Assembly: GCA_964423505.1 (NCBI GenBank)
Contig: CAYREX010000006.1
Span: 930-64,929, forward strand
Direction of reading: 5' to 3'
Length of the DNA: 64,000 nt
Origin: an uncultured bacterium
GTDB taxonomy: Bacteria > Fermentibacterota > Fermentibacteria > Fermentibacterales > JCC-6
Shown: positions 1 to 55,422 of the stretch, one piece after another
How positions within the stretch are numbered: position 1 is the first letter of the stretch
Layout: each line of letters opens with the position of its first letter
The notes under the pieces: generated by a model
The model's input: the letters and a program-made list of their open reading frames with translations, nothing else
What the model was told of the DNA's origin: nothing
Databases searched by the model: none
Position numbers and translations under genes: made by a program

Positions 1-15
1 GGAAAGGAGAATGAA

Positions 16-423
16 ATGCAAGGGCTACTCAAATGGGTAATGATCATGATGATCAGTACAATCGTATTTGCTGGGGAGGTTTCGGACAGCGTAACCTTCA
101 ATACAGTTCAGAATGCGCCCACCGGTTTCACATCCTGGGTGTTCTACTGGTCTATGCCTGAGATTGATCCGGATGCTACCCTAGAGTACATTGTTCTCCA
201 ACCGGATGGAGATGAGTACTACCGCATGACGGTACCCGGTACTACTCCGGCAGGGCAAGGGATACGCTCAGATTTCTATGAGGGTTTCGCAGGAGGTAAC
301 CCTGAAGTTCTCTATGGCACTGACATTCAGATCATGTTCACGGTGGACAAAGGGACTATCCAATTCCTGGACGATGCATCGTATCACTTTGAATTCACGG
401 AAACTATTGATGCCATCAGATAG
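16..423 (+). CDS. Hypothetical exported protein (cassette 1), 135 aa
   Basis: ORF with RBS ggaaaggagaat preceding the ATG. Hydrophobic signal-like N-terminus MQGLLKWVMIMMISTIVFAG. No recognisable family. An attC-like element follows immediately. Confidence 0.5.
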   Translation: MQGLLKWVMIMMISTIVFAGEVSDSVTFNTVQNAPTGFTSWVFYWSMPEIDPDATLEYIVLQPDGDEYYRMTVPGTTPAGQGIRSDFYEGFAGGNPEVLYGTDIQIMFTVDKGTIQFLDDASYHFEFTETIDAIR

Positions 424-432
424 GGACTGCCG

Positions 433-507
433 AACAACTGCATGAACCATCTACGAGCGGAGCTGCTTGATCCAGGTGGTCGTAATGGTTATGCAGAGCG
501 TTGTGTG
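433..507 (+). repeat. attC-like recombination site (cassette 1 end)
   Basis: AACAACTGCATGAACCA...TGGTTATGCAGAGCGTTGTGT is an imperfect inverted repeat with unpaired bases; left end AAC, right end GTT. Highly similar copies at 1401-1476 and 2375-2448. Confidence 0.55.
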
Positions 508-657
508 GTAGGCACGGCGTCGGCTGAGAACAGAGAACAACAGGAAAACAGGCACATAGGAAATCGGGCCCAACGGACAGAAAAAGCCGCCGCCGTGAAG
601 AACAGAAAAACGGACAAATAGGGCAGAACGGACAGCAGCAGAGGAGACAGAGCCCAC
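508..657 (+). repeat. Conserved ~150-bp non-coding cassette, copy 1 of 3
   Basis: Purine-rich on the top strand (gagaacagagaacaacaggaaaacagg...aaaaagccgccgccgtgaagaacag). Bounded by attC-like sites on both sides. Near-identical copies at 1477-1625 and 2449-2592. Confidence 0.6.
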
Positions 658-731
658 AACCACAGCATGAACCAGTCGCGGAGCTGAACTCTTCGTCCTG
701 GCATCCACGCTGGTTATGCTGAGCGTTGACC
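658..731 (+). repeat. attC-like site (end of non-coding cassette 2)
   Basis: AACCACAGCATGAACCAG...CTGGTTATGCTGAGCGTTGAC, an imperfect palindrome ending in GTT. Confidence 0.5.
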
Positions 732-753
732 CTCAGAAAACGGTAGGGCGTTC

Positions 754-782
754 TTGACAAAGTGTAGCCAATAGGCTACACT
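754..782 (+). promoter_or_regulatory. Promoter with palindromic operator upstream of the higB-like toxin gene
   Basis: TTGACA at 754-759, a 17-nt spacer, then TACACT at 777-782. The perfect palindrome GTGTAGCC-AATA-GGCTACAC (762-781) overlaps the spacer and the -10. The ATG at 789 makes the mRNA near-leaderless. Confidence 0.5.
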
Positions 783-788
783 ATACAT

Positions 789-1079
789 ATGATAGAGATT
801 CGGAAGACCGAGGATTTCTCGAAGTGGCTTGATCGGCTGAGAGACATCCGTGCACGAGCACGCATTCTTGCCAGGATCAAGCGACTTGAATGCGGACTCG
901 TAGGTGATGCCAAGCCGGTTGGCGAGGGTGTATCAGAACTGCGGATCGACTACGGTCCCGGATACAGGGTCTACTTCAAGAAACATGGGAAGAACCTGGT
1001 TATCCTATTGGCCGGTGGTGACAAGCGAACACAGAGCAAGGATATTGAGAAGGCATTGCGCCTGGCGCGAGAGCTATAG
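789..1079 (+). CDS. higB: Type II toxin, addiction-module killer protein (HigB-like, RelE/ParE superfamily), 96 aa
   Basis: Translation DFSKWLDRLRDIRARARILARIKRLECGLVGDAKPVGEGVSELRIDYGPGYRVYFKKHGKNLVILLAGGDKRTQSKDIEKA matches the conserved killer-protein family pattern (...RL..G..GD.KPVGEGV.ELRI..GPGYR.YF...G..LVILL.GGDK.TQ..DI). Confidence 0.8.
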   Translation: MIEIRKTEDFSKWLDRLRDIRARARILARIKRLECGLVGDAKPVGEGVSELRIDYGPGYRVYFKKHGKNLVILLAGGDKRTQSKDIEKALRLAREL

Positions 1080-1089
1080 GAGAAGAACC

Positions 1090-1389
1090 ATGAGCAAGAC
1101 CAGAACAACTCGCTTCGAAATCGCGGAGCATCTTCGGACTCCTGAGGAAATGGCCGCATACCTTGAAGCTTGCCTTGAGGAGTCCAACGGTGATGCGGCT
1201 TTCGTGGCAAAGGCACTCGGAGATATTGCACGAGCAAAAGGAATGACACAGGTTGCTCGAGATGCAGGCCTCTCCAGAGAAAGCTTGTATAAGGCACTGT
1301 CGGGTGAGCGTACCCCTGGATTCGATACAATCCTGAAGGTAGTGCATGCCCTCGGGATGGAGCTGCACGCAGCTCCGCTTCATAACTGA
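1090..1389 (+). CDS. higA: Type II antitoxin, HTH addiction-module antidote protein (HigA-like), 99 aa
   Basis: ATG at 1090, 11 nt after the toxin stop. Translation FEIAEHLRTPEEMAAYLEACLEE...ALGDIARAKGMTQVARDAGLSRESLYKALSGERTPGFDTILKVVHALGM matches the antidote-protein family. Toxin-first gene order is typical of HigBA. Confidence 0.8.
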   Translation: MSKTRTTRFEIAEHLRTPEEMAAYLEACLEESNGDAAFVAKALGDIARAKGMTQVARDAGLSRESLYKALSGERTPGFDTILKVVHALGMELHAAPLHN

Positions 1390-1400
1390 GAAGAAGGGTC

Positions 1401-1476
1401 AACAACTGCATGAACCAGGCAACGGGGCAGGAGTGAACGATCATGAGTCCCGTGCTGGTTATGCAGAGCGTTGACG
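1401..1476 (+). repeat. attC-like site (end of higBA cassette)
   Basis: AACAACTGCATGAACCAGG...CTGGTTATGCAGAGCGTTGACG; same family as 433-507. Confidence 0.55.
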
Positions 1477-1625
1477 AGTAGGCACGGTGGCGTCTGAGAA
1501 CAGAGAGCAAGGAAACCGGGCACAAAGGAAATCGGGCCCATAGAACAAAAAAGCCGCCACCGTGAAGAACAGGAAATAGAAACCGGACAACAGGACAGCG
1601 GCAGAACAGAGGAGATAGTTTCGCC
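1477..1625 (+). repeat. Conserved ~150-bp non-coding cassette, copy 2 of 3
   Basis: Aligns by eye with 508-657 and 2449-2592, with a few substitutions and indels. Confidence 0.6.
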
Positions 1626-1698
1626 AACAATGGGCTGTAGCAGAATTGCGCCTGGTAGTGGCGATCGTCTCGCAATCAGCTAAGCCCAAGCGTTAGGT
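1626..1698 (+). repeat. attC-like site ending in the canonical core GTTAGGT
   Basis: AACAATGGGCTGTAGCAG...CAGCTAAGCCCAAGCGTTAGGT. Arms are imperfectly complementary. The right end matches the GTTRRRY core site exactly, 4 bp before the ATG at 1702. Confidence 0.6.
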
Positions 1699-1701
1699 GA
1701 T

Positions 1702-2376
1702 ATGGAATCGACTTGGTGGAGAGAGTTCGCAGAGAGGAAAATCCGTACTACCGCTTGCATTGCTGAGAATTGCCAAGGAACATATGGAGATGTTGTTCTC
1801 CTCTTATCCGCGGTGATTTCCGCAATGGCAGCAGAATGCTGGCCTGGACGATCAATTGACAAGAAACGCTATCTGCAGTTACTGGCTCAGTACGCACCCG
1901 CAACAAAAATGATCAGCACCCCAAGGCTATGTGCATTCCTGAGTTCCCAGAAAAAACATGACCAGGAGATGCGCATTCGCAACCAGTACCCGAACATCCC
2001 GAATGATGGTCGGATTGTACTCGGGCCTGAGATCGACCACAATGAGGATGAGATATTACGGATACAGGGACTAGATATCGATCTCTCAGATCTCAGAGAG
2101 TGCTCGTATGCAGCAATTCTTTATCGTGATCTGAGAACAAGTTACACGCACGAATACAAGATTGGTGATCATACAGATTGCATAAGGATGACCAGCTCGA
2201 CCGAGCCTTGTGTTTCGTACACAAACATGTTGGGGAAAAGCACTAGGCAGATCCACTTCCCATTGAGACTAATTGCGGATATCACTAAGCAGTGTGCGAT
2301 TTCAGTTGATCAGCTCAATGGGACACTGCCAAGGGAGCGGCCAGAGACTTGGTGGATTGACGGAGGGAACACCTAA
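1702..2376 (+). CDS. Hypothetical cassette protein, 224 aa, no recognisable family
   Basis: ORF starts 4 bp after the attC core. Its TAA stop lies inside the next attC, where ACCTAAC fits the RYYYAAC inverse core. No motif recognised. Confidence 0.5.
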   Translation: MESTWWREFAERKIRTTACIAENCQGTYGDVVLLLSAVISAMAAECWPGRSIDKKRYLQLLAQYAPATKMISTPRLCAFLSSQKKHDQEMRIRNQYPNIPNDGRIVLGPEIDHNEDEILRIQGLDIDLSDLRECSYAAILYRDLRTSYTHEYKIGDHTDCIRMTSSTEPCVSYTNMLGKSTRQIHFPLRLIADITKQCAISVDQLNGTLPRERPETWWIDGGNT

Positions 2377-2448
2377 CAACTGCATGAACCATCTACGAGC
2401 AGAGCTGATTGTCCTGGGTGGTCGTAATGGTTATGCAGAGCGTTATGG
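2375..2448 (+). repeat. attC-like site
   Basis: ACCTAAC-AACTG-CATGAACCA...TGGTTATG-CAGAGC-GTTATGG. The R''/L''...L'/R' architecture is visible, with one unpaired base. Confidence 0.6.
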
Positions 2449-2592
2449 AGTAGGCACGGCGGCGTCTGAGAACAGAGAACAGAGAAATCGGGCACATAGG
2501 ACAATCGGGCCCATAGAATAAAAAGCCGCCGCCGTGAAGAACAGAAAACGGACAACCGGACAACGGCAGCAGCAGAGGAGACAGAGTCCATA
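2449..2592 (+). repeat. Conserved ~150-bp non-coding cassette, copy 3 of 3
   Basis: Same element as 508-657 and 1477-1625. Confidence 0.6.
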
Positions 2593-2655
2593 ACAATCGA
2601 ATAGAGCAGACTGCTGGGCATTGATCAGGGTAGCAGCTCATTCGAAGCGTTATCT
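2593..2655 (+). repeat. attC-like site
   Basis: ATAACAATCGAAT...ATTCGAAGCGTTATCT; arms imperfectly complementary, AAC...GTT ends. Confidence 0.5.
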
Positions 2656-2678
2656 ATTAGAAGAATGGGGTACATTAG

Positions 2679-3488
2679 GTGAAGAAAATCCTCCTAAACG
2701 ATATTCTGCAAATGGGTCACTTGGACAAAGTGAAGATACGTTTTAACATGAACAATAAGGACATATGGAATCCGATTGAGTTGTTCAAATCCGGGGAAAT
2801 TGAAGAACTTCTAAATGGCCACTATTGGAACTATTCGAAAAAATCCTACAAGCATGGACAAATCACTGTGGGATTCATTCGCCTAGAGCAAGCTGACCTT
2901 TGGTTGCTCTTTCATGTTGGAGTGATTACGAAGGATCTTAACATTCTCAATGGTATCGGCTACGAGTACGAAACACTGCCTGAGTATGAGAAGTATCTTG
3001 GTCGACTTATCATTCGCTTCAAAAACAAGGCAACAAATCTGATTCGTAATGCAAAATCAGTAATTGATGATTGTGAAGTACTCCATATCCTTCCTAACAC
3101 CTTTGAAAATGATATCTTCCCTGGATATGATAAGGTAGACTTGTCTTGGAATGAGTTAAGTAGTGCAACAAGAAAAGAGGTATGGATAACAGCTTTGCAG
3201 AATCAAAAGGGCGTCTATCTGATCACCGATTCATCAAATGGGAAAATGTATGTTGGTTCCGCGTACGGAGATAGAATGCTACTTGGTCGTTGGAAGTCTT
3301 ATGCAAAGACAGGACATGCTGGCAATTCTGAGTTGAGAGATTTGAGCTTCGAGCATATCAAGGAGCATTTTCGTTTTTCAATATTGGAGATATTCAAGTC
3401 TACAACCGATGATAAAACAATACTTGGACGTGAGCAGTGGTGGAAACGAATTTTACTCACACGAGAATTTGGATACAACAGAAATTAA
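2679..3488 (+). CDS. Cassette protein with a C-terminal GIY-YIG nuclease domain and an uncharacterised ~175-aa N-terminal domain, 269 aa (GTG start)
   Basis: C-terminal KGVYLITDSSNGKMYVGSAYGDRMLLGRWKSYAKTGHAGNSEL...FRFSILEIF...REQWWKRILLTREFGYN fits the GIY-(9-11)-YIG, R, H, E, N nuclease signature. Codons are very AT-rich, giving the lowest GC in the window. Confidence 0.7.
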   Translation: MKKILLNDILQMGHLDKVKIRFNMNNKDIWNPIELFKSGEIEELLNGHYWNYSKKSYKHGQITVGFIRLEQADLWLLFHVGVITKDLNILNGIGYEYETLPEYEKYLGRLIIRFKNKATNLIRNAKSVIDDCEVLHILPNTFENDIFPGYDKVDLSWNELSSATRKEVWITALQNQKGVYLITDSSNGKMYVGSAYGDRMLLGRWKSYAKTGHAGNSELRDLSFEHIKEHFRFSILEIFKSTTDDKTILGREQWWKRILLTREFGYNRN

Positions 3489-3516
3489 TAAATTAGGTTT
3501 AGAGAAAATCTTAGAT

Positions 3517-3592
3517 AACAACAAAATGCAGCAGTACTGCGCTAGAAAATGAGAGTCAAGTTTTCGCAGTCTGCTGATTTTGGATGTTCTGC
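3517..3592 (+). repeat. attC-like site (AT-rich variant)
   Basis: AACAACAAAATGCAGCAGTACTGCG...CGCAGTCTGCTGATTTTGGATGTTCTGC. Arms are complementary with indels; AAC...GTT ends. Confidence 0.55.
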
Positions 3593-3606
3593 AGAAAGAA
3601 ATGGGA

Positions 3607-3641
3607 TTGACGAATGTATATGATGGAGATATACATCTAGC
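3607..3641 (+). promoter_or_regulatory. Promoter/operator of brnTA cassette
   Basis: TTGACG at 3607-3612, a 17-nt spacer containing the inverted repeat GTATAT..ATATAC, then -10 TATACA. The ATG at 3642 follows closely. Confidence 0.45.
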
Positions 3642-3944
3642 ATGGTGAAACCTCGCGACCGACTGAAAGAATGCACAGGGTTCGAGTGGGATGATGGGAA
3701 TGCGACCAAGAACTGGGAGAAGCACGAAGTATCGCAGTCTGAGTGCGAGCAGGTGTTCTTCAACAGACCACTCATCCTCCGAAGGGATACGAAGCATTCA
3801 GATCGTGAAGCCAGGTATTACGTTCTTGGCAATACCGATGCCAAGCGGCTTCTCTTCGTGGTTTTCACGATACTAGGTGAAAAGATCAGAGTAATATCCG
3901 CAAGGGACATGACCGAGCGGGAAGAGCAGAGGTATCAGAAATGA
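3642..3944 (+). CDS. brnT: BrnT-family type II toxin (DUF497 ribonuclease toxin), 100 aa
   Basis: GFEWDDGNATKNWEKHEVSQSECEQVF...RYYVLG...LLFVVFT...IRVISARDMTEREEQRY matches the BrnT pattern FEWD..K...N..KHG..F.E....F......R..A...ER. Confidence 0.8.
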   Translation: MVKPRDRLKECTGFEWDDGNATKNWEKHEVSQSECEQVFFNRPLILRRDTKHSDREARYYVLGNTDAKRLLFVVFTILGEKIRVISARDMTEREEQRYQK

Positions 3945-4225
3945 GGAAGATGAAAAAGATCCCGAGATTCAAGACGGAGCAGGAGGAAAGGGAGTTCTGG
4001 CGAACTCACGATTCCAGTGAGTATCTCCACTGGGACAATGCTGCCGAGGTCACCCTGGCCAAGCTGAAGCCCTCTACTAAGACGATATCGCTGCGTCTAC
4101 CGGAATCGATGATTGAGGAACTCAAGATCCTCGCAAACAAGCAGGACATCCCTTACCAGTCGCTTCTGAAAGTGTTTCTTGCAGAGCGACTTGATGAGGA
4201 ACTTGAGGCGATCAGAGCACATTGA
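3941..4225 (+). CDS. brnA: BrnA-family antitoxin (CopG/RHH-like), 94 aa
   Basis: ATGA overlap with brnT. KTISLRLPESMIEELKILANKQDIPYQSLLKVFLAERL matches the BrnA C-terminal ITLRL....YQ..L pattern. Confidence 0.8.
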   Translation: MRKMKKIPRFKTEQEEREFWRTHDSSEYLHWDNAAEVTLAKLKPSTKTISLRLPESMIEELKILANKQDIPYQSLLKVFLAERLDEELEAIRAH

Positions 4226-4228
4226 TGC

Positions 4229-4305
4229 AGAACAAGCGCCTGCAGCGGCATTACGGTCTGGGGTAGAGGAAGGCCATCGCAATCCGCTGAGCCTATGTGT
4301 TCACC
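4229..4305 (+). repeat. attC-like site (second sequence family)
   Basis: GAACAAGCGCCTGCAGCGG...CCGCTGAGCCTATGTGTTCACC; imperfect inverted repeat. A similar element lies at 5506-5580. Confidence 0.5.
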
Positions 4306-4358
4306 AGATTGACATAAACGAAAATACGTACGATATTCCGTACGGATGGAGGTGCGGG

Positions 4359-4601
4359 ATGACCAACGTAACTGTCACGGAAGCAAGGAAGAGGCTGTAC
4401 AAGCTGCTGGATGAGGTTGCACAGTCTCATGAACCTGTGCAGATCGCCGGCAAGCGGAACTCGGCTGTTCTTGTCGGGGAAGAGGACTGGAGGGCGATCC
4501 AGGAGACACTCTATCTGACCAGTATTCCTGGCATGCGGCAGTCGATACAGGAGGGCATAGCCACTCCGGTAGATGAATGTGACGAGGAGCTTGACTGGTG
4601 A
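4359..4601 (+). CDS. yefM: YefM/Phd-family antitoxin, 80 aa
   Basis: MTNVTVTEARKRLYKLLDEVAQSHEPVQIAGKRNSAVLVGEEDWRAIQETLYL is the classic Phd/YefM fold signature. RBS ggaggtg upstream. A TTGACA promoter (4309-4314) with a CCGTACGG palindrome also lies upstream. Confidence 0.8.
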   Translation: MTNVTVTEARKRLYKLLDEVAQSHEPVQIAGKRNSAVLVGEEDWRAIQETLYLTSIPGMRQSIQEGIATPVDECDEELDW

Positions 4602-4861
4602 CATGGCGGATCGTGTTCACCAAACAGGCAAGAAGAGATGCGAAGAAACTGGCCAGTTCAGGTCTGAGAGATAAGGCGGAGATCCTGCTCCAGCTGCTTT
4701 CAGATGATCCCTTCAGAACTCCGCCGCCCTATGAAAAACTGATTGGTGACCTGGCTGGTGCCTGTTCAAGGAGAATCAATATCCAACACAGGCTTGTGTA
4801 CCAGGTTCTTCAAGATCAGCGAACCGTCAAGGTCCTGCGAATGTGGACCCATTATGAATGA
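4598..4861 (+). CDS. yoeB: YoeB/Txe-family toxin, 87 aa (GTG start overlapping the yefM stop)
   Basis: ...LAGACSRRINIQHRLVYQVLQDQRTVKVLRMWTHYE matches the YoeB/Txe motif SRRI...HRLVY.V. Confidence 0.8.
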   Translation: MTWRIVFTKQARRDAKKLASSGLRDKAEILLQLLSDDPFRTPPPYEKLIGDLAGACSRRINIQHRLVYQVLQDQRTVKVLRMWTHYE

Positions 4862-4866
4862 TGGTG

Positions 4867-4942
4867 AACAACTGCATGAACCAGGCAGCGGGGCGGAGCT
4901 GATCTAACGTGTATCCTGTGCTGGTTATGCTGAGCGTTCTGC
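4867..4942 (+). repeat. attC-like site
   Basis: AACAACTGCATGAACCAGG...CTGGTTATGCTGAGCGTTCTGC. Confidence 0.55.
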
Positions 4943-4956
4943 TGTAAGATAGGAAC

Positions 4957-4985
4957 TTGACAGTGCCCTACATTGTAGCTACGAT
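4957..4985 (+). promoter_or_regulatory. Promoter/operator of second brnTA cassette
   Basis: TTGACA at 4957-4962, a 17-nt spacer with the palindrome CTACA-T-TGTAG, then TACGAT at 4980-4985. Confidence 0.5.
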
Positions 4986-5011
4986 ATGCACATTAAAGCA
5001 CTACATTTCGA

Positions 5012-5275
5012 ATGGGATCCCAACAAGGAACTCAGAACCTCGAGAAGCACGGAATCACATTCAAGGAAGCAAGCAGTGTTTTCTATGACGAATGGGCGGT
5101 TGAGTTCTACGATGATGAGCATTCGGAGTGGGAGAACCGATGCCTGATGCTCGGCCTCAGTGCTCGACTCCGGTTGCTCCTCGTCTGTCATTGCAGCAGA
5201 GAGGAAGAGTCGGTGATCCGGATCATCTCCGCCCGGAAAGCGACAGAGAATGAAGCTAGGCAGTACCGGAGGTGA
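5012..5275 (+). CDS. brnT: BrnT-family toxin paralog (DUF497), 87 aa
   Basis: LEKHGITFKEASSVFYDEW...NRCLMLG...VIRIISARKATENEARQY is the BrnT signature. It is divergent from the 3642 copy, so it is not a recent duplicate. Confidence 0.75.
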   Translation: MGSQQGTQNLEKHGITFKEASSVFYDEWAVEFYDDEHSEWENRCLMLGLSARLRLLLVCHCSREEESVIRIISARKATENEARQYRR

Positions 5276-5279
5276 AACC

Positions 5280-5495
5280 ATGAAGGACGAGTACGATCTC
5301 TCGAAGATGAAATCCCGTAGGAATCCCTATGCCAAGCGCCTGAAGAAACAGATCACGCTTCGCCTGCAGCCGGAGATCATCGAGTACTTCAAGGCCTTGT
5401 CAGAGAAAATCGACATACCTTACCAGAGTCTGATCAACCTATACCTGCTGGATTGCGTGAATCATCATCGTGAACTGAAGATGGACTGGACATAG
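5280..5495 (+). CDS. brnA: BrnA-family antitoxin paralog, 71 aa
   Basis: RBS ggagg upstream; KKQITLRLQPEIIEYFKALSEKIDIPYQSLINLYLLDCV. Confidence 0.75.
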   Translation: MKDEYDLSKMKSRRNPYAKRLKKQITLRLQPEIIEYFKALSEKIDIPYQSLINLYLLDCVNHHRELKMDWT

Positions 5496-5505
5496 AAGAG
5501 AGGGC

Positions 5506-5580
5506 AGAACAAGCGGCTGCTGCGGTATCGCGCAGGGGTAGGTAGACCAGGGCGCAATCCGCTGAGCCTTCATGTTCGCT
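5506..5580 (+). repeat. attC-like site (second family)
   Basis: GAACAAGCGGCTGCTGCGG...CCGCTGAGCCTTCATGTTCGCT. Confidence 0.5.
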
Positions 5581-5598
5581 CCCATAACGGAAGGACGT

Positions 5599-5630
5599 CT
5601 TGACGTTATGACGTTATGGCTACATGATTC
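5599..5630 (+). promoter_or_regulatory. Putative promoter with tandem direct repeat operator
   Basis: TTGACG at 5599-5604 followed by an ACGTTATG-ACGTTATG tandem repeat; the -10 is unclear. The downstream RBS gaaaggagaat-ATG is identical to the one before the 16..423 ORF. Confidence 0.35.
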
Positions 5631-5651
5631 CTCTGGAAGGAAAGGAGAATC

Positions 5652-5885
5652 ATGTCTGATCTGACGAAAAGGGCTACTGTCTACCTTGATCCTGCGCTAC
5701 ACCGGGCACTGCGACTCAAGTCCGTAGAGACTTCAAGATCCATATCGGAACTGATCAACGATGCCATTCGAGAAGAACTGGCAGAGGACGCGGATGATCT
5801 GGCCGTCTTCCGTGCACGGATTGACGAGCCCACCGTAACGTTCGAGGCCTTCGTTGAAGGACTGAAGCGTGATGGCAGGCTATAG
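5652..5885 (+). CDS. Ribbon-helix-helix antitoxin (CopG/RelB/ParD-like), 77 aa
   Basis: RATVYLDPALHRALRLKSVETSRSISELINDAIREEL is an RHH DNA-binding motif. It overlaps the downstream toxin gene. Confidence 0.7.
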   Translation: MSDLTKRATVYLDPALHRALRLKSVETSRSISELINDAIREELAEDADDLAVFRARIDEPTVTFEAFVEGLKRDGRL

Positions 5886-6129
5886 GATTCTTATCCGGAA
5901 ATCGGTTCGGAAGGATCTTGATGGAATCCCGAAGAAGGATGTGCAGCGAATCGTCAAGGCAATCAGCAGTCTAGCCGAGGATCCGCGGCCGAGGCAATCC
6001 AAGAAGTTATCCGGAGAAGAGAAGTACAGGCTTCGGTGCGGATCTTACCGGGTGCTCTACGAGATTCTGGACAAAGAGCTGGTTGTGTACATCGTTCGAG
6101 CCCGGCATCGTAGAGACGCATATAGATAG
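5872..6129 (+). CDS. RelE/ParE-family type II toxin, 85 aa
   Basis: YRILIRKSVRKDLDGIPKKDVQRIVKAISSLAEDPRP...YRLRCGSYRVLYEILDKELVVYIVRARHRRDAY matches the RelE/ParE fold pattern. Confidence 0.75.
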   Translation: MAGYRILIRKSVRKDLDGIPKKDVQRIVKAISSLAEDPRPRQSKKLSGEEKYRLRCGSYRVLYEILDKELVVYIVRARHRRDAYR

Positions 6130-6135
6130 AGAGCG

Positions 6136-6180
6136 AACAACAGCATGCAGTAGGCAACCTGCTGATGCTGAGAGTGTCGA
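6136..6180 (+). repeat. Degenerate terminal attC-like element at the array/core junction
   Basis: AACAACAGCATGCAGTAGG..CCTGCTGATGCTG is a partial palindrome. No clean GTT right end. The GC-rich core sequence begins just after. Confidence 0.35.
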
Positions 6181-6280
6181 CTCGCTTGACCACTGGCGTG
6201 ACATCCGGTCCGGAGCTCGAGAGGTCTGTGGGTACTCATCGCCGGCGACGGATGGAGGCGGTCCTGAGGACCGCTGCGCT

Positions 6281-6790
6281 TCAGCGCTTGTAGCCTATCC
6301 TGTGGAGAAGCTCTATGCGGTTCTGGCGGTCCTCGTCTATCTCCACCGCCTGGGGTGGCTCGCCGTCTATCACGCCGAGGACGCCTCCGCCCTGGTCGGT
6401 CCTGGCCCTGATGACCTGGAGCGGGTTGGCGGTGGCGCAGAAGATGCGGCAGACCTCCTGGGTCTGCTTGATGCGGTTCAGGACCTGGATGGGGTAGGTC
6501 CCGTGGAGGACGATGAGGAAGGTGTGGCCGCAGGCGAGGTCGAGGATGTTCCTCTCGGCTATCTGCCGCAGCTCCAGGTCGGTGCCGTCGCTCCGTACCA
6601 GCCTGGGGCCGGAGGCCTCGGCGAAGGCGATTCCGAAGGCCGCGCCGGGGACGGCGGTGGCGATGGCCTCGTAGAGGTCCTCGACGGTCTTGATGAAGTG
6701 GGACTGGCCGAGGATGACGTTGCAGCCCTCGGGGAAGTCCAGCGGGACTACATCCAGGTCTATCGTGCCGGTCGTCTCGATTCCGTTCAT
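6281..6790 (-). CDS. Adenosine-specific kinase-like protein (DUF355 family), 169 aa
   Basis: Size and overall pattern resemble the small adenosine-specific kinase family. RBS ggaggag upstream. The assignment is tentative. Confidence 0.4.
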   Translation of the reverse strand: MNGIETTGTIDLDVVPLDFPEGCNVILGQSHFIKTVEDLYEAIATAVPGAAFGIAFAEASGPRLVRSDGTDLELRQIAERNILDLACGHTFLIVLHGTYPIQVLNRIKQTQEVCRIFCATANPLQVIRARTDQGGGVLGVIDGEPPQAVEIDEDRQNRIELLHRIGYKR

Positions 6791-6809
6791 GTCTCCTCCG
6801 CGGGTGCTT

Positions 6810-8228
6810 CTAGTAGCGCCTGCGCTTCCTGGCCGAGGGGATGCCCAGGTCGGCGCGGTAGTTGGCCACGGTCCGGCGCTTGACCTCCATGCCCGCCTCC
6901 GCTAGGAGCTCGGCGAGCTTCGCGTCGGAGAGCGGGGCCTTCTTGTCCTCGTCCTCTATCAGCATCCTGAGCTCCTCCTTCACGGTCCTGCTGGAGACGG
7001 TGCCGCTCTCGGCGGGCACGCCCCGGGAGAAGAAGAAGCGCATCTCGTGTATGCCCTTGGGCGACTGGACGTACTTGCCGTTGATGGCCCGGCTTATGGT
7101 GGACTGGTTGTAGCCCAGGGCGTCGGCGACGTTCTGGAGGGTGAGGGGCCTCAGGTCCTCTATGCCGTTCTCGAAGAAGCCGGCCTGGTAGTCCGCCAGG
7201 AAATCCCCTATGCGGGTGACCGTCTCCTGGCGCTGCATGATGGAGCGGATGAACCAGGAGGCGCGCTGGAACTTCTTCTTGACGTACTCCCTGGCGTCGT
7301 CTGAGGAGCTGGGGGACTCCAGTATGCGTCGGTTCCTGGCGGAGATGGAGAGGGTGGGGAAGCGGTTGTCGTTCAGGGTGGCGACGAACCTGTCCCCCAC
7401 CCTGGTGATGATGATGTCCGGGATGACCGCGGCGTTGCTGCCGGAGTGGAAGATTCCGCCGGGCCAGGGGTTCAGCCGGGAGACGGCGTCCAGCGCCTCC
7501 TGGACCCGCTGGGGGGTCTCCCCCAGGGCCTCGGCAATGGCCCTTATCCTGTGCTCGGCCATCTCGTAGAAGTAGTCGGAGACCATCCTGCGCTCCACGC
7601 TGCCCTCGTCGTAGCCCAGCCGCTCCAGCTGCAGGTCCAGCGCCTCGGAGACGGTGCCGGAGCCGACGCCTACCGGGTCCATCTCCCTGACCACCTCCAG
7701 GGCCCTGCGTAGCAGCTCCCTGTCCCCCTCCCACCCGGCCTCCAGCTCGTACTCCGGGAGGGAGAGCAGGCCGTGGTGGTCCAGGGAGTAGACGACGTAG
7801 ATGACAGCCTCCTCCAGGTCCCTGCGGAGGTTCAGGTCGTAGACCTGCTCAAGCAGGTGCTCGTAGAGGGTCTTCTCGGCCACCGGCTCCGGGGTCCAGG
7901 GCTCGTCGTCCTCGCTCCAGGTGGCCGAGGGGCCCTCGCCGGTGTGCTCCTCTATCTTCCGGAGGATGTCCAGCGGGTCGCTCTCCTCGCTGTCGCTCCT
8001 GGAGGGCTCCTCGTCCCAGTCGCTCTCCTCGGCCTCCGCCTCGGTCTCCTGGGTCTCCTCCCGCTCCTGCTCCAGTAGGGGGTTCTCCTGGAGCTCCTGG
8101 GAGATGAGGTTCTCCAGCTCCTGAGAGGGGAGCTGGAGTATCTCCAGGGCCTGGCGTATCTTCTGGGTGAGGACCAGCTTCTGGGTCTGGGCCAGCCTGG
8201 CCTGCTGCTGAAGCTTCATCCTCGGCAT
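6810..8228 (-). CDS. rpoN: RNA polymerase sigma-54 factor RpoN
   Basis: C-terminal RpoN box RRTVANYR, an HTH and a core-binding region. Start placed at MPRMKLQQQARLAQTQKL, the conserved N-terminus. The upstream Arg/Gly-rich extension of the ORF is rejected. Confidence 0.9.
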   Translation of the reverse strand: MPRMKLQQQARLAQTQKLVLTQKIRQALEILQLPSQELENLISQELQENPLLEQEREETQETEAEAEESDWDEEPSRSDSEESDPLDILRKIEEHTGEGPSATWSEDDEPWTPEPVAEKTLYEHLLEQVYDLNLRRDLEEAVIYVVYSLDHHGLLSLPEYELEAGWEGDRELLRRALEVVREMDPVGVGSGTVSEALDLQLERLGYDEGSVERRMVSDYFYEMAEHRIRAIAEALGETPQRVQEALDAVSRLNPWPGGIFHSGSNAAVIPDIIITRVGDRFVATLNDNRFPTLSISARNRRILESPSSSDDAREYVKKKFQRASWFIRSIMQRQETVTRIGDFLADYQAGFFENGIEDLRPLTLQNVADALGYNQSTISRAINGKYVQSPKGIHEMRFFFSRGVPAESGTVSSRTVKEELRMLIEDEDKKAPLSDAKLAELLAEAGMEVKRRTVANYRADLGIPSARKRRRY

Positions 8229-8230
8229 CT

Positions 8231-8965
8231 CTAGAGCCTGAACCTCTCTCCCAGGTATATCTTCCTCGCCTCCGGGTCCTCCGCCAGCTCGGTGGCGGAG
8301 CCTGAGATGAGAATCCTCCCGTCGTACATGATATACGCCCTGTCGGTTATCTCCAGGGTCTCCCGGACGTTGTGGTCGGTGATGAGTATGCCCAGCCCCT
8401 TCTCCCTGAGGCCGCCGACGATGGACTGTATGTCGGCGACGGCTATGGGGTCTATGCCTGCGAACGGCTCGTCGAGGAGCAGGAATGCCGGGTTGGTGAC
8501 CAGCGCCCTCGCTATCTCCACCCTCCTGCGCTCGCCGCCGGAGAGGGTGTAGGCCTTCTGGGTCCTGACCCGCTCTATGCCCAGCTCCCCCAGGAGCTGA
8601 TCGCACCTCCGCCTCCGCTCCCTGCGGCCCAGGCCGGTGGTCTCCAGGATGCTCATGAGGTTGTCCTCGACGGTCATCTTGCGGAAGACGCTGGACTCCT
8701 GCGGGAGGTAGCCTATCCCGAGCCTGCAGCGCCTGTACATGGGCAGCCTGGTTATCGGCCTCTCGTCCAGGAAGACCTCACCCTCGTCCGGGCGGATGAA
8801 GCCTACTATCTGGTTGAAGGTGGTGGTCTTGCCGGCGCCGTTCGGACCTAGGAGGCCGACCACCTCCCCCCTGGCGACGGAGACGGAGACCCTGTCCACC
8901 ACCGCCCTGCGGCGGTAGCGCTTCACCAGGTCGCTCGTCCTGAGAACCCTCGGCCCTTCCGGCAT
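8231..8965 (-). CDS. lptB: LPS export ABC transporter ATP-binding protein LptB
   Basis: Walker [12 protein letters not shown], signature [15 protein letters not shown], and a position immediately upstream of rpoN. Start at [13 protein letters not shown]. Confidence 0.9.
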
Positions 8966-10014
8966 CAGATGGAGCCCTCCCTGTAGCTGTAGGTCCCCGA
9001 CACGGTGCCGCTGACCCTGATGAGCCCGACGGAGCCGTCCTCGAAGCCTATCTCGAAGAGGTCGCCCCGGACCGTGTTCATCTCCTCCCGGGCGGCGGCC
9101 TCCCCCCCGCTGTCCACCGTGAGGCTGGCCGCTCCCCAGATGGAGATGGAGTCCGGCTCCTCGTCGGTGAAGGCGAAGTAGGCGCTCTCCGAGTCGAACC
9201 ATGTCTCCGAGGGGGGCGATACGCCGTCGTCCAGGAAGTGCCCGCTGGCGGCCCCCTCCACCCGGACGGTGGAGCGGCCGCTCCCCTCGTCCATGGTCAG
9301 CTCCATCCAGTCGCCGGAGAGCTCACCGTCCGGTGTGGTGAGCACCGGGGAGCCGAACAGCTCGAACCGCTCGTCGTTCCCCATGTAGATCAGGTACTCC
9401 GCCGTGGCGGTCAGCTCCCGGGCGGGCATGAGAACAAGGGCGTCGCCCTGGGCCTCGGCCCTGTTGCTGTCCGGCAGGAACTCCAGCCTGTCGGCGGTGA
9501 CCGTGAGGCTGTCGCCGTCCTCCACCCTGCGAAGTACCGGGTCGACGGTGACGAAGAGGCTGCCCCTCTCCCTGTCGTACATGGCGTACTCCCCCTCGAC
9601 GGTTCCGAGCCAGGGGCCGGTCATCACCACCGAGTCGGTGGCAACGGCCTTGCCGGAGCTGCGGAAGTAGACCACCTCCCTCGCCTCCACCACGCTCTCC
9701 CCGTCGGTGAGGGTGACGTTGCCGGTCATGGTCATGATGCCGGTCTCCCGGCTGTACTCCAGCATGTCGGAGGTGCCCGAGAGGGTATCCGTCACCACCT
9801 CGACGTTCGAGTGGAAGACGGCGTCGCCGGCCTGCTGCCAGACGGTGCCGGAGTCGGAGGTGACGGTGACCTCTCCGTCGGTGACGGAGACGTTGCCCCA
9901 CATGTCCAGCCTGACCTCTCCCCCCTCCAGCTCAACCCCGGTGGCCCGGTCGGCGGAGACGGTGTAGACGTCCTGCGAGGCCAGCAGGGCGGCGGCCAGC
10001 AGCAGCTCAGTCAA
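8965..10014 (-). CDS. lptA: LptA/OstA-like periplasmic protein (tandem OstA N-terminal-like beta-jellyroll)
   Basis: Signal peptide and a repetitive beta-rich sequence. Position between lptC-like and lptB matches the conserved lptC-lptA-lptB order. Confidence 0.5.
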
Positions 10015-52516: not shown

Positions 52517-54877
52517 ATGAATACACGGTACGACCGGGAGGCCGGGCGTCTGACCACCGGCATCGGCGACCTGATAGCCTGGGCGAGGCTGCCCGACACC
52601 CTGGTCCCCGACGGCGGCGGTGCGCCGGACTTGCAGGCCAGGCAGAGGGTGCATTCCGCCTACCAGAGGCGCCTGGCCGCCGGCGGGTTCGACGTCGAGG
52701 TGCCGCTCTCCCTGGAGCTGGAGGTCCTCGGCATCACCTTCGACCTGCGGGGCAGGGCCGACCTCGTCAGGCGGACGGCATCAGGCATCGAGCTCATCGA
52801 GGTGAAGACCGCCTCCCGCCGGCCCGACCCGGGTCATCCCATGCTGACCCGCTCACGGCACGTGCTGCAGCTCTACTTCTACCTGCAGGCCCTCGCCGGC
52901 GACGTCCCCGTGAGCGCCGCGCTGGTCTACCTCTCGATGGACGGGAGCCCACCGGGCGAGCAGAGGGTCGACATCGACCCGGACGACCCGCTCGTGGAGG
53001 AGGCCTGGTCGGAGATGCTGGAATGGACCGCCCGGACCCTCCTCGCGGAGGAGGCGCGGAGGAGGGAGCAGGAGCGGGCGTTGGGCGGCGATATCTTCCC
53101 CTACGAGGCGCGGAGGCCCGGCCAGGAGCAGATGACCGCCGCGGTACGCGGAGCCCTGTCGGCCGGCCGGAACCTGATGCTGCAGGCTCCCACGGGCACC
53201 GGCAAGACCGCCGCCGTGCTCGAGGGTGCGCTCCGGGCGGTACTTCCCGATAGGGGCGTCCTCTTCTTCCTGACCGCCAAGGGCACGCAGAGGCACATGG
53301 CTGAGGAGACGGTCCGACTGACGGCGGAGAGGGGCCTCCCCCTCCGGGCGGTCACCCTCACCGCCAGGGAGCGTGTCTGCATGCGGGGCAGGCCCAGGTG
53401 CCTCCCGGACGACTGTCCCTGGGCGGAGCGCTTCGGGGAGAGCGTCCGCGCCTCCGGCGTCCGGGAGGAGCTGCTCGGGGAGACGGTCGTCGGACGGGAG
53501 GAGCTGGTGCGCGCAGCGGAGCGCTCCGGCGCATGCCCCTTCGAGCTGGGGCTCTGCATGACCGGCCATGCGGACATCGTGGTATGCGACTACAACTACG
53601 TGTTCGACCCCCACGTCTACCTGAGGCGCTTCTTCGGGGAGCCTGCCGCCGCCTCCCGGTGCCGCCTCCTGATGGACGAGGCGGCCAACCTGCCGGAGAG
53701 GGCCAGGGACTGGTTCTCCCCCACCGTCTCCCGCTCCCTCGTGGAGCGGCTGCTGAGGGAGGGCGGAGGCGGCCATGCCCGTCTCCTCGCCCCCCTCCTG
53801 GAGCCCTGGCTGGCACGCCTCCGCGAGTGGGAGGCCCTTCTCGCGGATGATGGGGACGGCCGGAGAGAGATGCTGCTGCCGGACGATACGCCGCTTCCTC
53901 TCTCGGAGGAGGGCTGGATGGAGGTCCTGGCATCGGCCGAGGACCCCTCCATGGACCTGATGGAGATGGCCCTGGCCGTCTTCGACATGTCCAGGATAGA
54001 CGGACCGGGAGACGACAGGTACCACCTGGTGCTGGACGCCGGCGAGGACGACCTGTCGGTGCAGTGGTTCTGCAGCGACCCTTCCCTGCAGCTGTCCGAG
54101 AGGGTGGGCTCCTGCTCCGGTTGCGTCGCCTTCTCGGCGACCCTGGAGCCCATGGACCACTACCGCCCACTGCTGGGCCTGCCGGAGGATACCCCCGGCG
54201 TGAGTGTCCCCTACCCCTTCCCGCCGGAGAACCTGGGCGTATGGCTGGACAGGACCGTGGACACCCGCTACCGGAGGCGGGAGGCCACCCTGGACGCTCT
54301 GTGCTCCCGGCTGGTCCAGCTGCTGGATGCGGTACCGGGAGCATGGCTCGTCTTCATGCCCTCCTTCGGCTACCTCCGCAACCTGCGTGAGCTGCTGGAG
54401 GGGGCGGGTGTGCCGGTCCTGGCCCAGGAGAGGGCGATGGCCCCGGAGATGCGCGAGCGGTTCCTCTCGAAGCTCTCCTCATGGGAGGGTGCGGCGCTCA
54501 CGGTCTCCGGCGGCATCTTCTCCGAGGGGGTGGACATAAGGAGCGACAGCCTGCGGGGAGCCGTCGTGGCCGGCCCATCGCTGCCCGGTGTGGATCTCAG
54601 GCGGAGGCTGCTCTCCGAGCGCTACGAGTCGACCGGCAGGAGCGGCTTCCTGCACGCATGGGCCATCCCGGGCATGACCCGGGTCGTCCAGGCCGCCGGC
54701 AGGCTGGTCAGGAGCGGTACCCAGAGGAGGGCCCTCGTGCTGGCCGGCGACAGGTTCGCCTGCCGCCCCTACCTCGGGCTGCTGCCGAAGCACTGGTTCG
54801 GCGAGGAGGGCCTCCCGGTACTCGGACGGGACGTCGACGGGATAGTCCGCTTCTTCCGGGAGGAGGGCGGGAGATAA
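52517..54877 (+). CDS. PD-(D/E)xK nuclease domain fused to a DinG/XPD-family Fe-S DNA helicase, 786 aa
   Basis: N-terminal ~200 aa with a D..(ELIEVK) nuclease triad and QLYFYL. Helicase has Walker A LQAPTGTGKT, a four-Cys cluster (CMRGRPRC..C..W and a GACPFELGLC region) between motifs I and II, DEAAN box, and motif VI QAAGRLVR. Confidence 0.75.
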   Translation: MNTRYDREAGRLTTGIGDLIAWARLPDTLVPDGGGAPDLQARQRVHSAYQRRLAAGGFDVEVPLSLELEVLGITFDLRGRADLVRRTASGIELIEVKTASRRPDPGHPMLTRSRHVLQLYFYLQALAGDVPVSAALVYLSMDGSPPGEQRVDIDPDDPLVEEAWSEMLEWTARTLLAEEARRREQERALGGDIFPYEARRPGQEQMTAAVRGALSAGRNLMLQAPTGTGKTAAVLEGALRAVLPDRGVLFFLTAKGTQRHMAEETVRLTAERGLPLRAVTLTARERVCMRGRPRCLPDDCPWAERFGESVRASGVREELLGETVVGREELVRAAERSGACPFELGLCMTGHADIVVCDYNYVFDPHVYLRRFFGEPAAASRCRLLMDEAANLPERARDWFSPTVSRSLVERLLREGGGGHARLLAPLLEPWLARLREWEALLADDGDGRREMLLPDDTPLPLSEEGWMEVLASAEDPSMDLMEMALAVFDMSRIDGPGDDRYHLVLDAGEDDLSVQWFCSDPSLQLSERVGSCSGCVAFSATLEPMDHYRPLLGLPEDTPGVSVPYPFPPENLGVWLDRTVDTRYRRREATLDALCSRLVQLLDAVPGAWLVFMPSFGYLRNLRELLEGAGVPVLAQERAMAPEMRERFLSKLSSWEGAALTVSGGIFSEGVDIRSDSLRGAVVAGPSLPGVDLRRRLLSERYESTGRSGFLHAWAIPGMTRVVQAAGRLVRSGTQRRALVLAGDRFACRPYLGLLPKHWFGEEGLPVLGRDVDGIVRFFREEGGR

Positions 54878-54929
54878 GGAAGGGGACGACGCCGAGGCGT
54901 CGTCCCCGCAGTACCGGGCGGTGCCGGTG

Positions 54930-55334
54930 CTACTCGGTTCCGGGCTCCTCCTCTACGGGAGGCTCCTCGGCGGGAGGCTCCTCCACGGGAGGCTCCTCGA
55001 CCGGGGGCTCCTCGCCCTCGGGCCTGTCGGGCTCCGGCCTGTCGGGCTCGGGCCTGTCGGGCACCGGGCGCTCACCCTCCGGACGCTCGCCCTCCGGACG
55101 CTCGCCCTCGGGGCGCTCACCCTCCGGCCTCTCACCCTCCGGCCTCTCACCCTCCGGACGCTCACCCTCCGGACGCTCGTCCTCGGGCATCTCGCCCTCC
55201 GGGCGCTCGTCCTCGGGGGTCACCTCGGTGTCGCCGTCATCGGCCGGCGTGGGCTCCTCGCCCTCGCCTCCGCCGCATGCAGCGAAAAGAGCAACAAGGG
55301 CGGAGAGGAAGAGCAGCGTAAGGACTTTCCTCAT
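54930..55334 (-). CDS. Pro/Glu-rich tandem-repeat lipoprotein, 134 aa
   Basis: Lipobox LFAACGG, then (ERPEG)x9, (DRPEP)x3, and (EEPPV)x4 repeats encoded by 15-bp tandem DNA repeats. RBS ggag upstream. Confidence 0.6.
   Translation of the reverse strand: MRKVLTLLFLSALVALFAACGGGEGEEPTPADDGDTEVTPEDERPEGEMPEDERPEGERPEGERPEGERPEGERPEGERPEGERPEGERPVPDRPEPDRPEPDRPEGEEPPVEEPPVEEPPAEEPPVEEEPGTE
55020..55215. repeat. 15-bp tandem DNA repeat tract (about 9 + 3 units) inside the lipoprotein gene
   Basis: Repeated ggacgctcgccctcc and ggcctctcaccctcc units on the top strand, in frame. Confidence 0.7.
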
Positions 55335-55422
55335 CTCGTCTCCTTTCGTTTTCTCGACCTCGGTCGAATAAACATAACCGCCTCGTGGTCGAGGCATTGC
55401 TTCCCGCATACTTAACGCGATA

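Follow-up and report, generated by a model that had tools for sequence, protein, structure and literature searches.

Sedentary chromosomal integrons, such as the Vibrio cholerae superintegron and those of Xanthomonas (in which the integrase gene intI is often inactivated), hold co-oriented gene cassettes that each end in an attC site; many of the cassettes are toxin-antitoxin modules with promoters of their own, and the remaining cargo is mostly of unknown function or serves phage defence. We analyzed a 64-kb stretch of contig CAYREX010000006.1 (64,000 nt, here termed the window) and conclude with high confidence that nucleotides 1-6180 belong to an integron gene-cassette array, of which they form the end far from the integrase, and that this array lies in the chromosome of an Aegiribacteria-related member of Fermentibacterota. 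The array resembles sedentary integrons in its chromosomal, co-oriented, attC-terminated cassettes and in its toxin-antitoxin, defence and uncharacterized cargo. By contrast to those integrons, its attC sites have a mean pairwise identity of 46% rather than forming one repeat family of about 90% identity, its cassettes lie 20 percentage points in guanine-plus-cytosine (GC) content below the host, the locus is not shared by two syntenic relatives, and the cassettes known to date number at least 13.

A second system for comparison is the cluster of attC sites lacking an integrase (CALIN), recognized by two or more same-strand attC sites spaced by less than 4 kb, and it is with CALINs and small arrays, rather than with large sedentary integrons, that low attC identity is associated (Cury et al., PMC4889954). 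Similarly, the eleven sites of the window lie on one strand with a largest inter-site gap of about 0.9 kb, no integrase is found in the window, within-array attC similarity is low, and the cargo carries no resistance genes and is unrelated to resistance cassettes. The array differs in that it crosses the left edge of the window, so that the absence of intI holds for the 58 kb rightward only. For single sites the reference is attCaadA7 of mobile integrons, in which the extrahelical bases G16 and T23, separated by a 6-bp stem, mark the bottom strand for the integrase, base 16 being usually G (Nivina et al. 2016, PMC5027507). The sites of the array share with it the 5'-AAC...GTT-3' ends, the R and L boxes, extrahelical bases opposite AAC at 16 and 23, the 6-bp stem and a variable terminal structure (3-22 nt), and depart from it in a base 16 that is mostly C and never G, a variable base 23 and a spacer of 2 nt on one arm and 1 nt on the other instead of 5-6 nt.

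Taken together, the locus extends a well-known system to a new host lineage and does not represent a new kind of system. With it, the uncultured anaerobic phylum Fermentibacterota is seen to possess an integron cassette reservoir; no paper tying this phylum to integrons was found in the searchable literature, and survey supplements may still list it. The lineage, the non-canonical extrahelical bases, a triplicated gene-less cassette (X) and the repeatedly decayed integrases are noteworthy, and none of these overturns current understanding. The practical reach of the finding is limited by the expected kind of element, the lack of resistance genes and the lack of an integrase in view.

Architecture of the array and its attC sites

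Sequence reading and a repeat scan revealed eleven attC-type sites in nucleotides 1-6180, all co-oriented on the + strand, and every credible gene of this low-GC block in the list of open reading frames (ORFs) is likewise on the + strand. The array comprises five type II toxin-antitoxin pairs, one Uzume-like gene, two ORFs of unknown function and three gene-less X cassettes, such that toxin-antitoxin pairs account for five of the eight coding cassettes and three of the eleven units are without a gene. GC content is 49.3% in the array compared to 69.3% in the remaining 58 kb of the window. A preliminary description of this DNA had proposed an integron-type cassette array dominated by toxin-antitoxin cargo and differing in composition from its flank; fold, covariation, model specificity and the arrays of relatives, presented below, all agree with this proposal.

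Extents of the sites were counted from the R'' 7-mer through the R' 7-mer. Family 1 comprises A1 (429-506; subfamily 1a; AAC at 433-435 and GTT at 500-502), A2 (655-731; the attC of X1), A3 (1397-1476; 1b), A5 (2371-2448; 1a; 85% identical to A1) and A9 (4863-4942; 1b). Family 2 consists of A8 (4227-4305) and A10 (5504-5580). The other four sites are singletons, namely A4 (1622-1698; the attC of X2), A6 (2588-2655; the attC of X3), A7 (3513-3592) and the terminal A11 (6132-6180), which stands at the junction of array and chromosome. The expectation of at least two sequence families was thus borne out, with at least six sequence types among the eleven sites and best pairwise identities of 85%, 77% and 71%. 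A strict family-1 pattern matched five times in the window and not once in 100 shuffles.

The preliminary description had counted at least eleven co-directional palindromes of 45-75 bp with AAC and GTT ends. Number and direction stand, and the lengths are revised to 49-80 bp: ten sites measure 68-80 bp, within the 57-141 bp of attC sites, and A11, like its homologue in a metagenome locus (L012), measures 49 bp. The AAC start and GTT end hold for ten of the eleven sites and fail at A11, which has GTG at 6174-6176 (its R' reads GTGTCGA, compared to GTTACAG in the L012 homologue). In the alignment the two triplets occupy columns 7-9 and 76-78 and are invariant or near-invariant, while the RYYYAAC/GTTRRRY consensus beyond the triplet is satisfied by only a few sites. 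The two 7-mers singled out earlier were found exactly as given, GTTAGGT at 1692-1698 as the R' of A4 and ACCTAAC at 2371-2377 as the R'' of A5.

When folded as single-stranded DNA, the bottom (minus) strands of all eleven sites adopt the same structure. Outermost is an R box in which AAC(G) pairs with (T)GTT; next comes an internal loop, usually with 2 nt on the 5' arm and 1 nt on the 3' arm. Two helices follow, the first of 6 bp and the second of 4-6 bp, each closed off by a single bulged base, and the tip is a variable stem and loop of 3-22 nt. The bulges are confined to the 3' arm, which faces the AAC triplet. By hand count inward from the R'' end they occupy positions 16 and 23, with a 6-bp stem between them (4-5 bp in A4, A6, A10 and A11); the unpaired bases of the bottom-strand hairpin are on the correct arm. 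The fold z-score was -5.0 at A7 and modest at some other sites (A8, -1.2; A9, -0.2). Base 16 is C in ten of the eleven window sites and T in A6. Among 24 sites outside the window (from L001, L004-L008, L010, L012-L014 and L017), it is C in 15, A in six, T in three and G in none. Judged from the aligned sites, Fermentibacterota integrases may use a lineage-specific code of extrahelical bases, in which C replaces G at position 16 and the spacer is nearly closed. Canonical geometry combined with non-canonical extrahelical bases and spacer would be a natural test of the features that integrases need.

Covariation was examined in two alignments. With the eleven window sites and one site of contig L001, 93.9% of cells at paired positions were paired, compared to 74% in shuffles and 23-52% in slid registers, and compensatory changes were detected in nine of sixteen pairs. 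With the 24 sites outside the window (23 from arrays of relatives and one from L001), 96.3% of cells were paired and ten of sixteen pairs were compensatory, this alignment having been fitted to its own covariance model, which somewhat favours pairing; its slid controls gave 25-36%. By these compensatory changes and the high paired fraction relative to controls, pairing is kept by structure rather than by sequence.

A covariance model (R1) was built from A1-A10 only and searched with filters off. The ten training sites scored 58-74 bits (A1, 69.2; A2, 66.4; A3, 74.3; A5, 73.1; A6, 58.6; A7, 68.3; A8, 66.8; A9, 69.6; A10, 58.6), and the model also recovered A11, which had been held out (25 bits, E ~9e-4), the likewise held-out L001 site (30.8 bits) and 23 sites in the arrays of relatives. 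The opposite (top) strand of the window sites scored no more than 13 bits, compared to 58-74 bits for the bottom strand, and by these low scores R1 is seen to sense strand asymmetry. No site was detected at 6200-64000 of the window (best score 8 bits, E 8.7), and 43 kb of core DNA from two syntenic relatives likewise gave no match at E<=1. A dispersed repeat family had been named in advance as the finding that would undo the integron reading; over these approximately 100 kb of core DNA, drawn from the window and the two relatives, the model was silent. An Rfam scan of nucleotides 1-7000 at E<=5 gave no match to the attC sites or to X, and a terminator scan of the + strand found none at the attC sites, which are not followed by a T-run. 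A lineage attC model of this kind could serve in mining cassettes from metagenomes.

Arrays in relatives provide evidence that the units are modular. One to eight co-oriented sites per locus were found in the Fermentibacterota loci and in metagenome locus L012, and in two of the Fermentibacterota assemblies the sites adjoin integron-integrase genes or their relics. The last cassette of the window, which encodes a ribbon-helix-helix (RHH)/ParE pair, has a copy internal to the L012 array, where the upstream attC is a different one and another cassette follows; homology between the two extends from about 20 nt past the upstream R' (by eye possibly the crossover) into the cassette's own attC. Cassettes are shared and reshuffled between arrays of different samples, and this reshuffling indicates that active integrases exist, or recently existed, in the lineage. 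GC content in the arrays of other relatives is 41-55%, which suggests one low-GC cassette pool common to a phylum of very different genomic GC. The 20-point GC gap and the cassettes shared across samples are signs that phylum members of very different base composition exchange cassettes.

Several points weigh against reading the locus as an integron array. R1 is home-built and trained on these same sites, its independence resting on two held-out sites and on sites of relatives that it selected and aligned itself. Across 35 sites base 16 is never G, in contrast to the usual G of the literature; position 23 is variable and not a conserved T; and the central spacer is almost closed (2 nt/1 nt) instead of having 5-6 unpaired nt per arm. 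The core triplet of the terminal site A11 is mutated. By tblastn with IntI1 (used as a probe only) and with Fermentibacterota IntI, no significant IntI match was detected in the 64-kb window, and no attI or Pc is visible in it. All four readable intI genes of relatives are damaged, so that integrase activity in the lineage is putative. Finally, none of the best 120 of 1,344 IntI-like proteins is on a contig of 145,289 nt, the length of the source contig, a weak result in that only short proteins were listed.

The integrase question

Cassette orientation had led to the prediction that intI lies to the left of base 1 in divergent geometry. The same geometry is found in relative L017, and the array does continue leftward. 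Logan contig L001 overlaps window 1-457 at 100% identity. The 904 nt by which it reaches further leftward hold a short attC, one complete cassette and the end of a further attC, such that the array reaches at least two cassettes beyond the window's left edge, for at least 13 cassettes in all. The gain was limited to 904 nt because Logan contigs break at attC repeats. The next cassette leftward (L001 51-833) carries a 260-aa ORF that has a response-regulator receiver match and is hydrophobic in its N-terminal half; with 60% GC, this cassette is far nearer to the host than the others, and its attC is only about 60 bp.

Integrase genes were read in four relatives. In L019, a reading frame scored 326 bits on the TIGR02249 integron integrase profile (cut-off 265), and this intI (2-829, + strand) carries an in-frame stop. 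The intI of L017 (9616-10468, + strand) has a frameshift and an in-frame stop and is divergent from an attC-bearing cassette; around this small integron (approximately 8000-10000) GC dips to 48% compared to 59% in the core, as in the window. A relic in L004 (709-1012, - strand), divergent from a five-site array, is a C-terminal remnant with an internal deletion that matches profile positions 195-252, around an ALERKYP...RRHH segment which we take to be the IntI-specific additional domain. In L006, an intI fragment of about 40 aa (4798-4917, - strand) lies inside the array and not at its head.

A 61-aa relic query for IntI relatives retrieved only two fragments, one in an unrelated-looking context, and a 122-aa chimeric IntI query retrieved 1,344 matches, those listed being all 214 aa or shorter. 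A weak IntI match within the window (53750-53917) was rejected, as it lies inside an 815-aa ORF that by its motifs is tentatively a DinG-like helicase. A frameshifted IntI-like fragment (ALERKYP...RRYH) was also noted at L015 10001-10427 / L016, on a contig of 46% GC where it adjoins HpsJ and exosortase EpsH genes; no convincing Fermentibacterota-type attC was found nearby, and the fragment is probably an unrelated decayed integron.

Two accounts of the present state of the array were weighed against these results. By the first, to which we give an even chance, the array is orphaned, that is, it is a CALIN or an integron with a decayed integrase, and its movement needs an integrase in trans or has ceased. 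The inactivated intI genes of all four relatives (L004, L006, L017 and L019) fit this account, with the reservation that single stops and frameshifts in contigs of metagenome-assembled genomes (MAGs) can be assembly errors. The lack of a source-contig protein among the best 120 of 1,344 IntI-like matches also fits. Against an orphaned state, the cassettes continue leftward out of the window, beyond which up to 81 kb of contig may lie. The heterogeneous attC sites, whose low mean identity (46%) is typical of CALINs (PMC4889954), and the degenerate terminal attC argue for an orphaned state, whereas the reshuffling of cassettes between the arrays of different samples implies integrases active in the lineage now or recently.

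By the second account, a serious possibility that falls somewhat short of an even chance, the locus is a complete sedentary chromosomal integron. Its intact intI, attI and Pc would then precede base 1, the window holding just the oldest, distal cassettes. The orientation of all sites and ORFs points intI leftward, L017 and L004 have the same geometry, at least two further cassettes follow leftward, and the array is chromosomal and adjoins conserved core synteny. Two relatives with the kds-lpt-rpoN-adoK synteny are without the array, however, so that its position is not anciently fixed; moreover, no relative that was read has an intact intI, no candidate on the source contig is among the best 120 of 1,344 IntI matches, and the attC sites are not homogeneous as in large sedentary integrons.

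If the locus is the distal part of an integron array, as we conclude, each unit would be a mobile cassette made up of cargo and one attC. Upon becoming single-stranded, the bottom (window minus) strand of an attC would fold into an imperfect hairpin with the AAC/GTT R box, a small internal loop and the L box, its extrahelical bases 16 and 23 marking the strand. This hairpin would be the binding target of an IntI-type tyrosine recombinase and would be cleaved within AAC (top strand G|TT). Recombination of attC with attC would excise a cassette as a circle, and recombination of attI with attC would re-insert it beside the integrase gene. The genes and sites that this requires (intI, attI and Pc) would be located leftward of the window, and we infer that recombination may still be occurring in this genome.

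Chromosomal setting and host lineage

Past the array the first core gene is that for adenosine kinase (adoK; 6281-6790, - strand; Pfam), followed by rpoN (6810-8219, - strand; Pfam), lptB and lptA. The RpoN protein is 64% identical to that of Ca. Fermentibacteria, 62% to Ca. Aegiribacteria MLS_C, 54% to Ca. Sabulitectum and 47% to Ca. Fermentibacter daniensis; the next named group outside these relatives is Ca. Methylomirabilis at 38%. In a scan of one genome each for 185,579 species, the exact family-1 attC pattern was found on only seven contigs, all of them Ca. Fermentibacteria or Aegiribacteria MAGs. By RpoN comparison and by the distribution of this pattern, the host is a member of Fermentibacterota.

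Relatives L021 and L023 (62-64% RpoN identity) keep the kdsB-kdsA-...-lptC-lptA-lptB-rpoN-adoK synteny. After adoK they have ordinary genes, among those seen in relatives at this place being an epimerase gene, an aminotransferase gene and alaS, with no array there and no model match; by this comparison the array has a position peculiar to this genome or to its nearest kin. The locus thus has the chromosomal setting of a sedentary integron, beside core genes (adoK-rpoN-lptB-lptA), and does not occupy the same place in the two relatives.

An assembly or binning chimera, in which a foreign low-GC array was joined to a high-GC Fermentibacterota contig, is highly improbable. Such an origin would account for the 20-point GC step exactly at the junction, and attC-like repeats do commonly break or mis-join assemblies, as seen in the Logan contigs that break at attC sites. 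However, the junction was crossed at 100% identity by independent Logan assemblies of two sequencing runs (L002, from 5848 into the core genes; L003, 6129-7000), and this re-assembly indicates that it is real and not an artefact. The junction sequence is also unique and not a repeat, the attC family is otherwise confined to Fermentibacterota among the species genomes scanned, and the GC dip at the L017 integron is alike.

That the palindromes are dispersed repetitive extragenic palindromes or miniature inverted-repeat transposable elements, or else terminator or operator hairpins of the toxin-antitoxin operons, is the least credible reading: although they are GC-containing, imperfect, intergenic and placed after genes, with the modest fold z-scores noted for A8 and A9, the model was silent over 58 kb of this genome and 43 kb of core DNA from relatives, they keep a single orientation throughout with no T-run or predicted terminator, their AAC/GTT ends are invariant and their bulges at 16 and 23 one-sided, three of them follow gene-less units, whole units recur as cassettes elsewhere, and integron integrase genes adjoin such sites in relatives.

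Coding cassettes and the gene-less cassette X

All coding cassettes read on the + strand. The first toxin-antitoxin cassette (789-1389) encodes a Gp49/HigB-like toxin (789-1079; PF05973, 1.8e-6) and an HI1420/HigA-like helix-turn-helix antitoxin (1090-1389; PF21716, 5.9e-31). It is followed at 3642-4225 by BrnT (3642-3944; PF04365, 3.2e-26) with a BrnA-CopG antitoxin (3941-4225; PF12441, 3.1e-33), at 4359-4861 by a Phd/YefM antitoxin (4359-4601; PF02604, 4e-19) with a YoeB-ParE-family toxin (4598-4861; PF06769, 3.1e-8), and at 5012-5495 by a second BrnT (5012-5275; PF04365, 4.6e-23) and BrnA (5280-5495; PF12441 and PF14384). The last cassette (5652-6129), 74% identical in nucleotide sequence to the internal cassette of L012, encodes an RHH antitoxin (5652-5885) and a ParE-RelE toxin (5869-6129). 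The Pfam E-values of the toxin-antitoxin proteins are 1e-6 to 1e-33, except for this RHH antitoxin (E 4e-4, below the Pfam cut-off).

In four of the five toxin-antitoxin cassettes, the leader that follows the preceding attC opens with a + strand sigma-70-like promoter. In the HigBA-type leader it is TTGACA-17-TACACT (754-782; 10/12 match) with a palindrome; the promoter-like sites of the Phd/YoeB, second BrnT/BrnA and RHH/ParE leaders are at 4309-4337, 4957-4985 and 5600-5628. The number of promoters over the whole region is not far above that in shuffles, and the fit of these leader promoters to self-expressed addiction modules is suggestive. Modules of this kind would penalize loss of the array, and we infer that the toxin-antitoxin cassettes may stabilize it; a toxin-antitoxin role in chromosomal integrons is described in PMC13108822. 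Short palindromes were also observed beside TTGACA-type boxes in the toxin-antitoxin leaders (755-788, 3600-3640, 4305-4345, 4955-4990 and 5582-5619), for example GTGTAGCC-AATA-GGCTACAC and inverted repeat I15 at 5582-5619; these look like antitoxin operators and are putative.

Two statements of the preliminary description on gene placement were not upheld beyond a single cassette. Genes were said to start within a few bp of the preceding site, which is so for c224 alone, the toxin-antitoxin leaders being 50-80 nt; and stop codons were said to fall inside the next site, which is again so only for c224 (2374-2376), the others lying 6-30 nt upstream of the AAC of their site.

The remaining coding cassettes are c135, c224 and the Uzume-like gene. 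The first, c135 (16-423), encodes 135 aa with a hydrophobic N-terminus, in a cassette that starts about 12 nt to the left of base 1 after the L001 attC; it had no Pfam or PADLOC match, and a metagenome scan with its protein found no relative. No Pfam or PADLOC match was found for c224 (1702-2376; 224 aa) either. The third gene (2679-3488; 269 aa), in a cassette of 38% GC, has a C-terminal GIY-YIG nuclease domain (PF01541) and a full-length PADLOC match to UzuA (E 3.1e-61), and its predicted product is an Uzume (UzuA)-like anti-phage defence protein. It agrees with the single-gene Uzume system in this full-length match and C-terminal GIY-YIG domain and differs in being packaged as an integron cassette. 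The gene is also about 66% similar in DNA to genes of Persicobacter and Acinetobacter plasmids. Without promoters and far from Pc, these three genes would be stored, and probably expressed weakly or by read-through. A search of the plasmid collection gave single-gene similarity only (Uzume-like and Phd/YoeB genes) with no array-level match, and the phage collection gave no match at all to the array.

Some gene-less cassettes are known to act as promoters (PMC6557892, PMC11014356). X resembles them in consisting of an attC without a conserved ORF, set among coding cassettes, and differs from those promoter cassettes in having no sigma-70-like match on either strand and a T-poor top strand, and in being a conserved family that is triplicated here. 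The three + strand copies are X1 with A2 (503-727; a purine-rich element at approximately 507-650, identified by repeats D1-D3 and D9 and by alignments), X2 with A4 (1473-1694) and X3 with A6 (2445-2651), the last two identified by repeat scan and alignments. They lie within 2.2 kb, share 70-81% identity across their alignment, in which the attC flanks are counted, and are purine-rich and T-poor on the + strand. X was also found in at least four other assemblies: a short form occurs twice in the Ca. Aegiribacteria MAG L006 (6222-6322 and 6636-6740), one copy immediately upstream of a 130-aa ORF, and single - strand copies are present in the Joint Genome Institute (JGI) metagenome contigs L012 (approximately 6185-6402), L013 (approximately 2895-3085) and L014 (approximately 40-250). 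The unit of X and an A4-type attC recurs in L012 and L014. A match in L011 in the pattern scan for X was attributed to chance in GC-rich coding DNA, and a scan of viral contigs gave no match.

Copies of X stand behind unrelated attC sites, and their shared identity begins at GTT, a boundary that agrees with the predicted recombination at G|TT. All copies have a GC stem of 10-12 bp (ACGGCGGCG...CGCCGCCGT) round a conserved A-rich loop, approximately 50-65 nt in extent (approximately 50 nt in the short forms of L006). Among eight copies the stem shows one compensatory pair and one wobble, and in one copy it is weakened; together with unremarkable fold z-scores (-0.4 to -2.7), this led us to reject a well-supported RNA structure. 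A protein-coding role was likewise rejected on account of 1-2-nt indels in the conserved core, across which the ORFs change frame. As a promoter, X had no sigma-70 match on either strand, and the sigma-54 motif GG-N10-GC was present by eye in X1 only; a CsrA-type GGA sponge was rejected by hand calculation, the GGA count being about that expected from base composition. It is unlikely, though conceivable, that the locus holds something beyond the known system, namely a regulatory role for X as mobile non-coding DNA (working as a small RNA, or in cis as a leader, built round the GC stem) that integrons spread and multiply within arrays, or else an altered integrase base code. In the former case X would, for example, modulate expression of the cassettes downstream.

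Far from the array, at approximately 54480-55370 in a + frame, the ORF list shows a GC-rich ORF with short serine/glycine-rich repeat runs (GSSTGGSS..., SPSGRSPSG...), which suggests that tandem repeats lie downstream of the 815-aa ORF.

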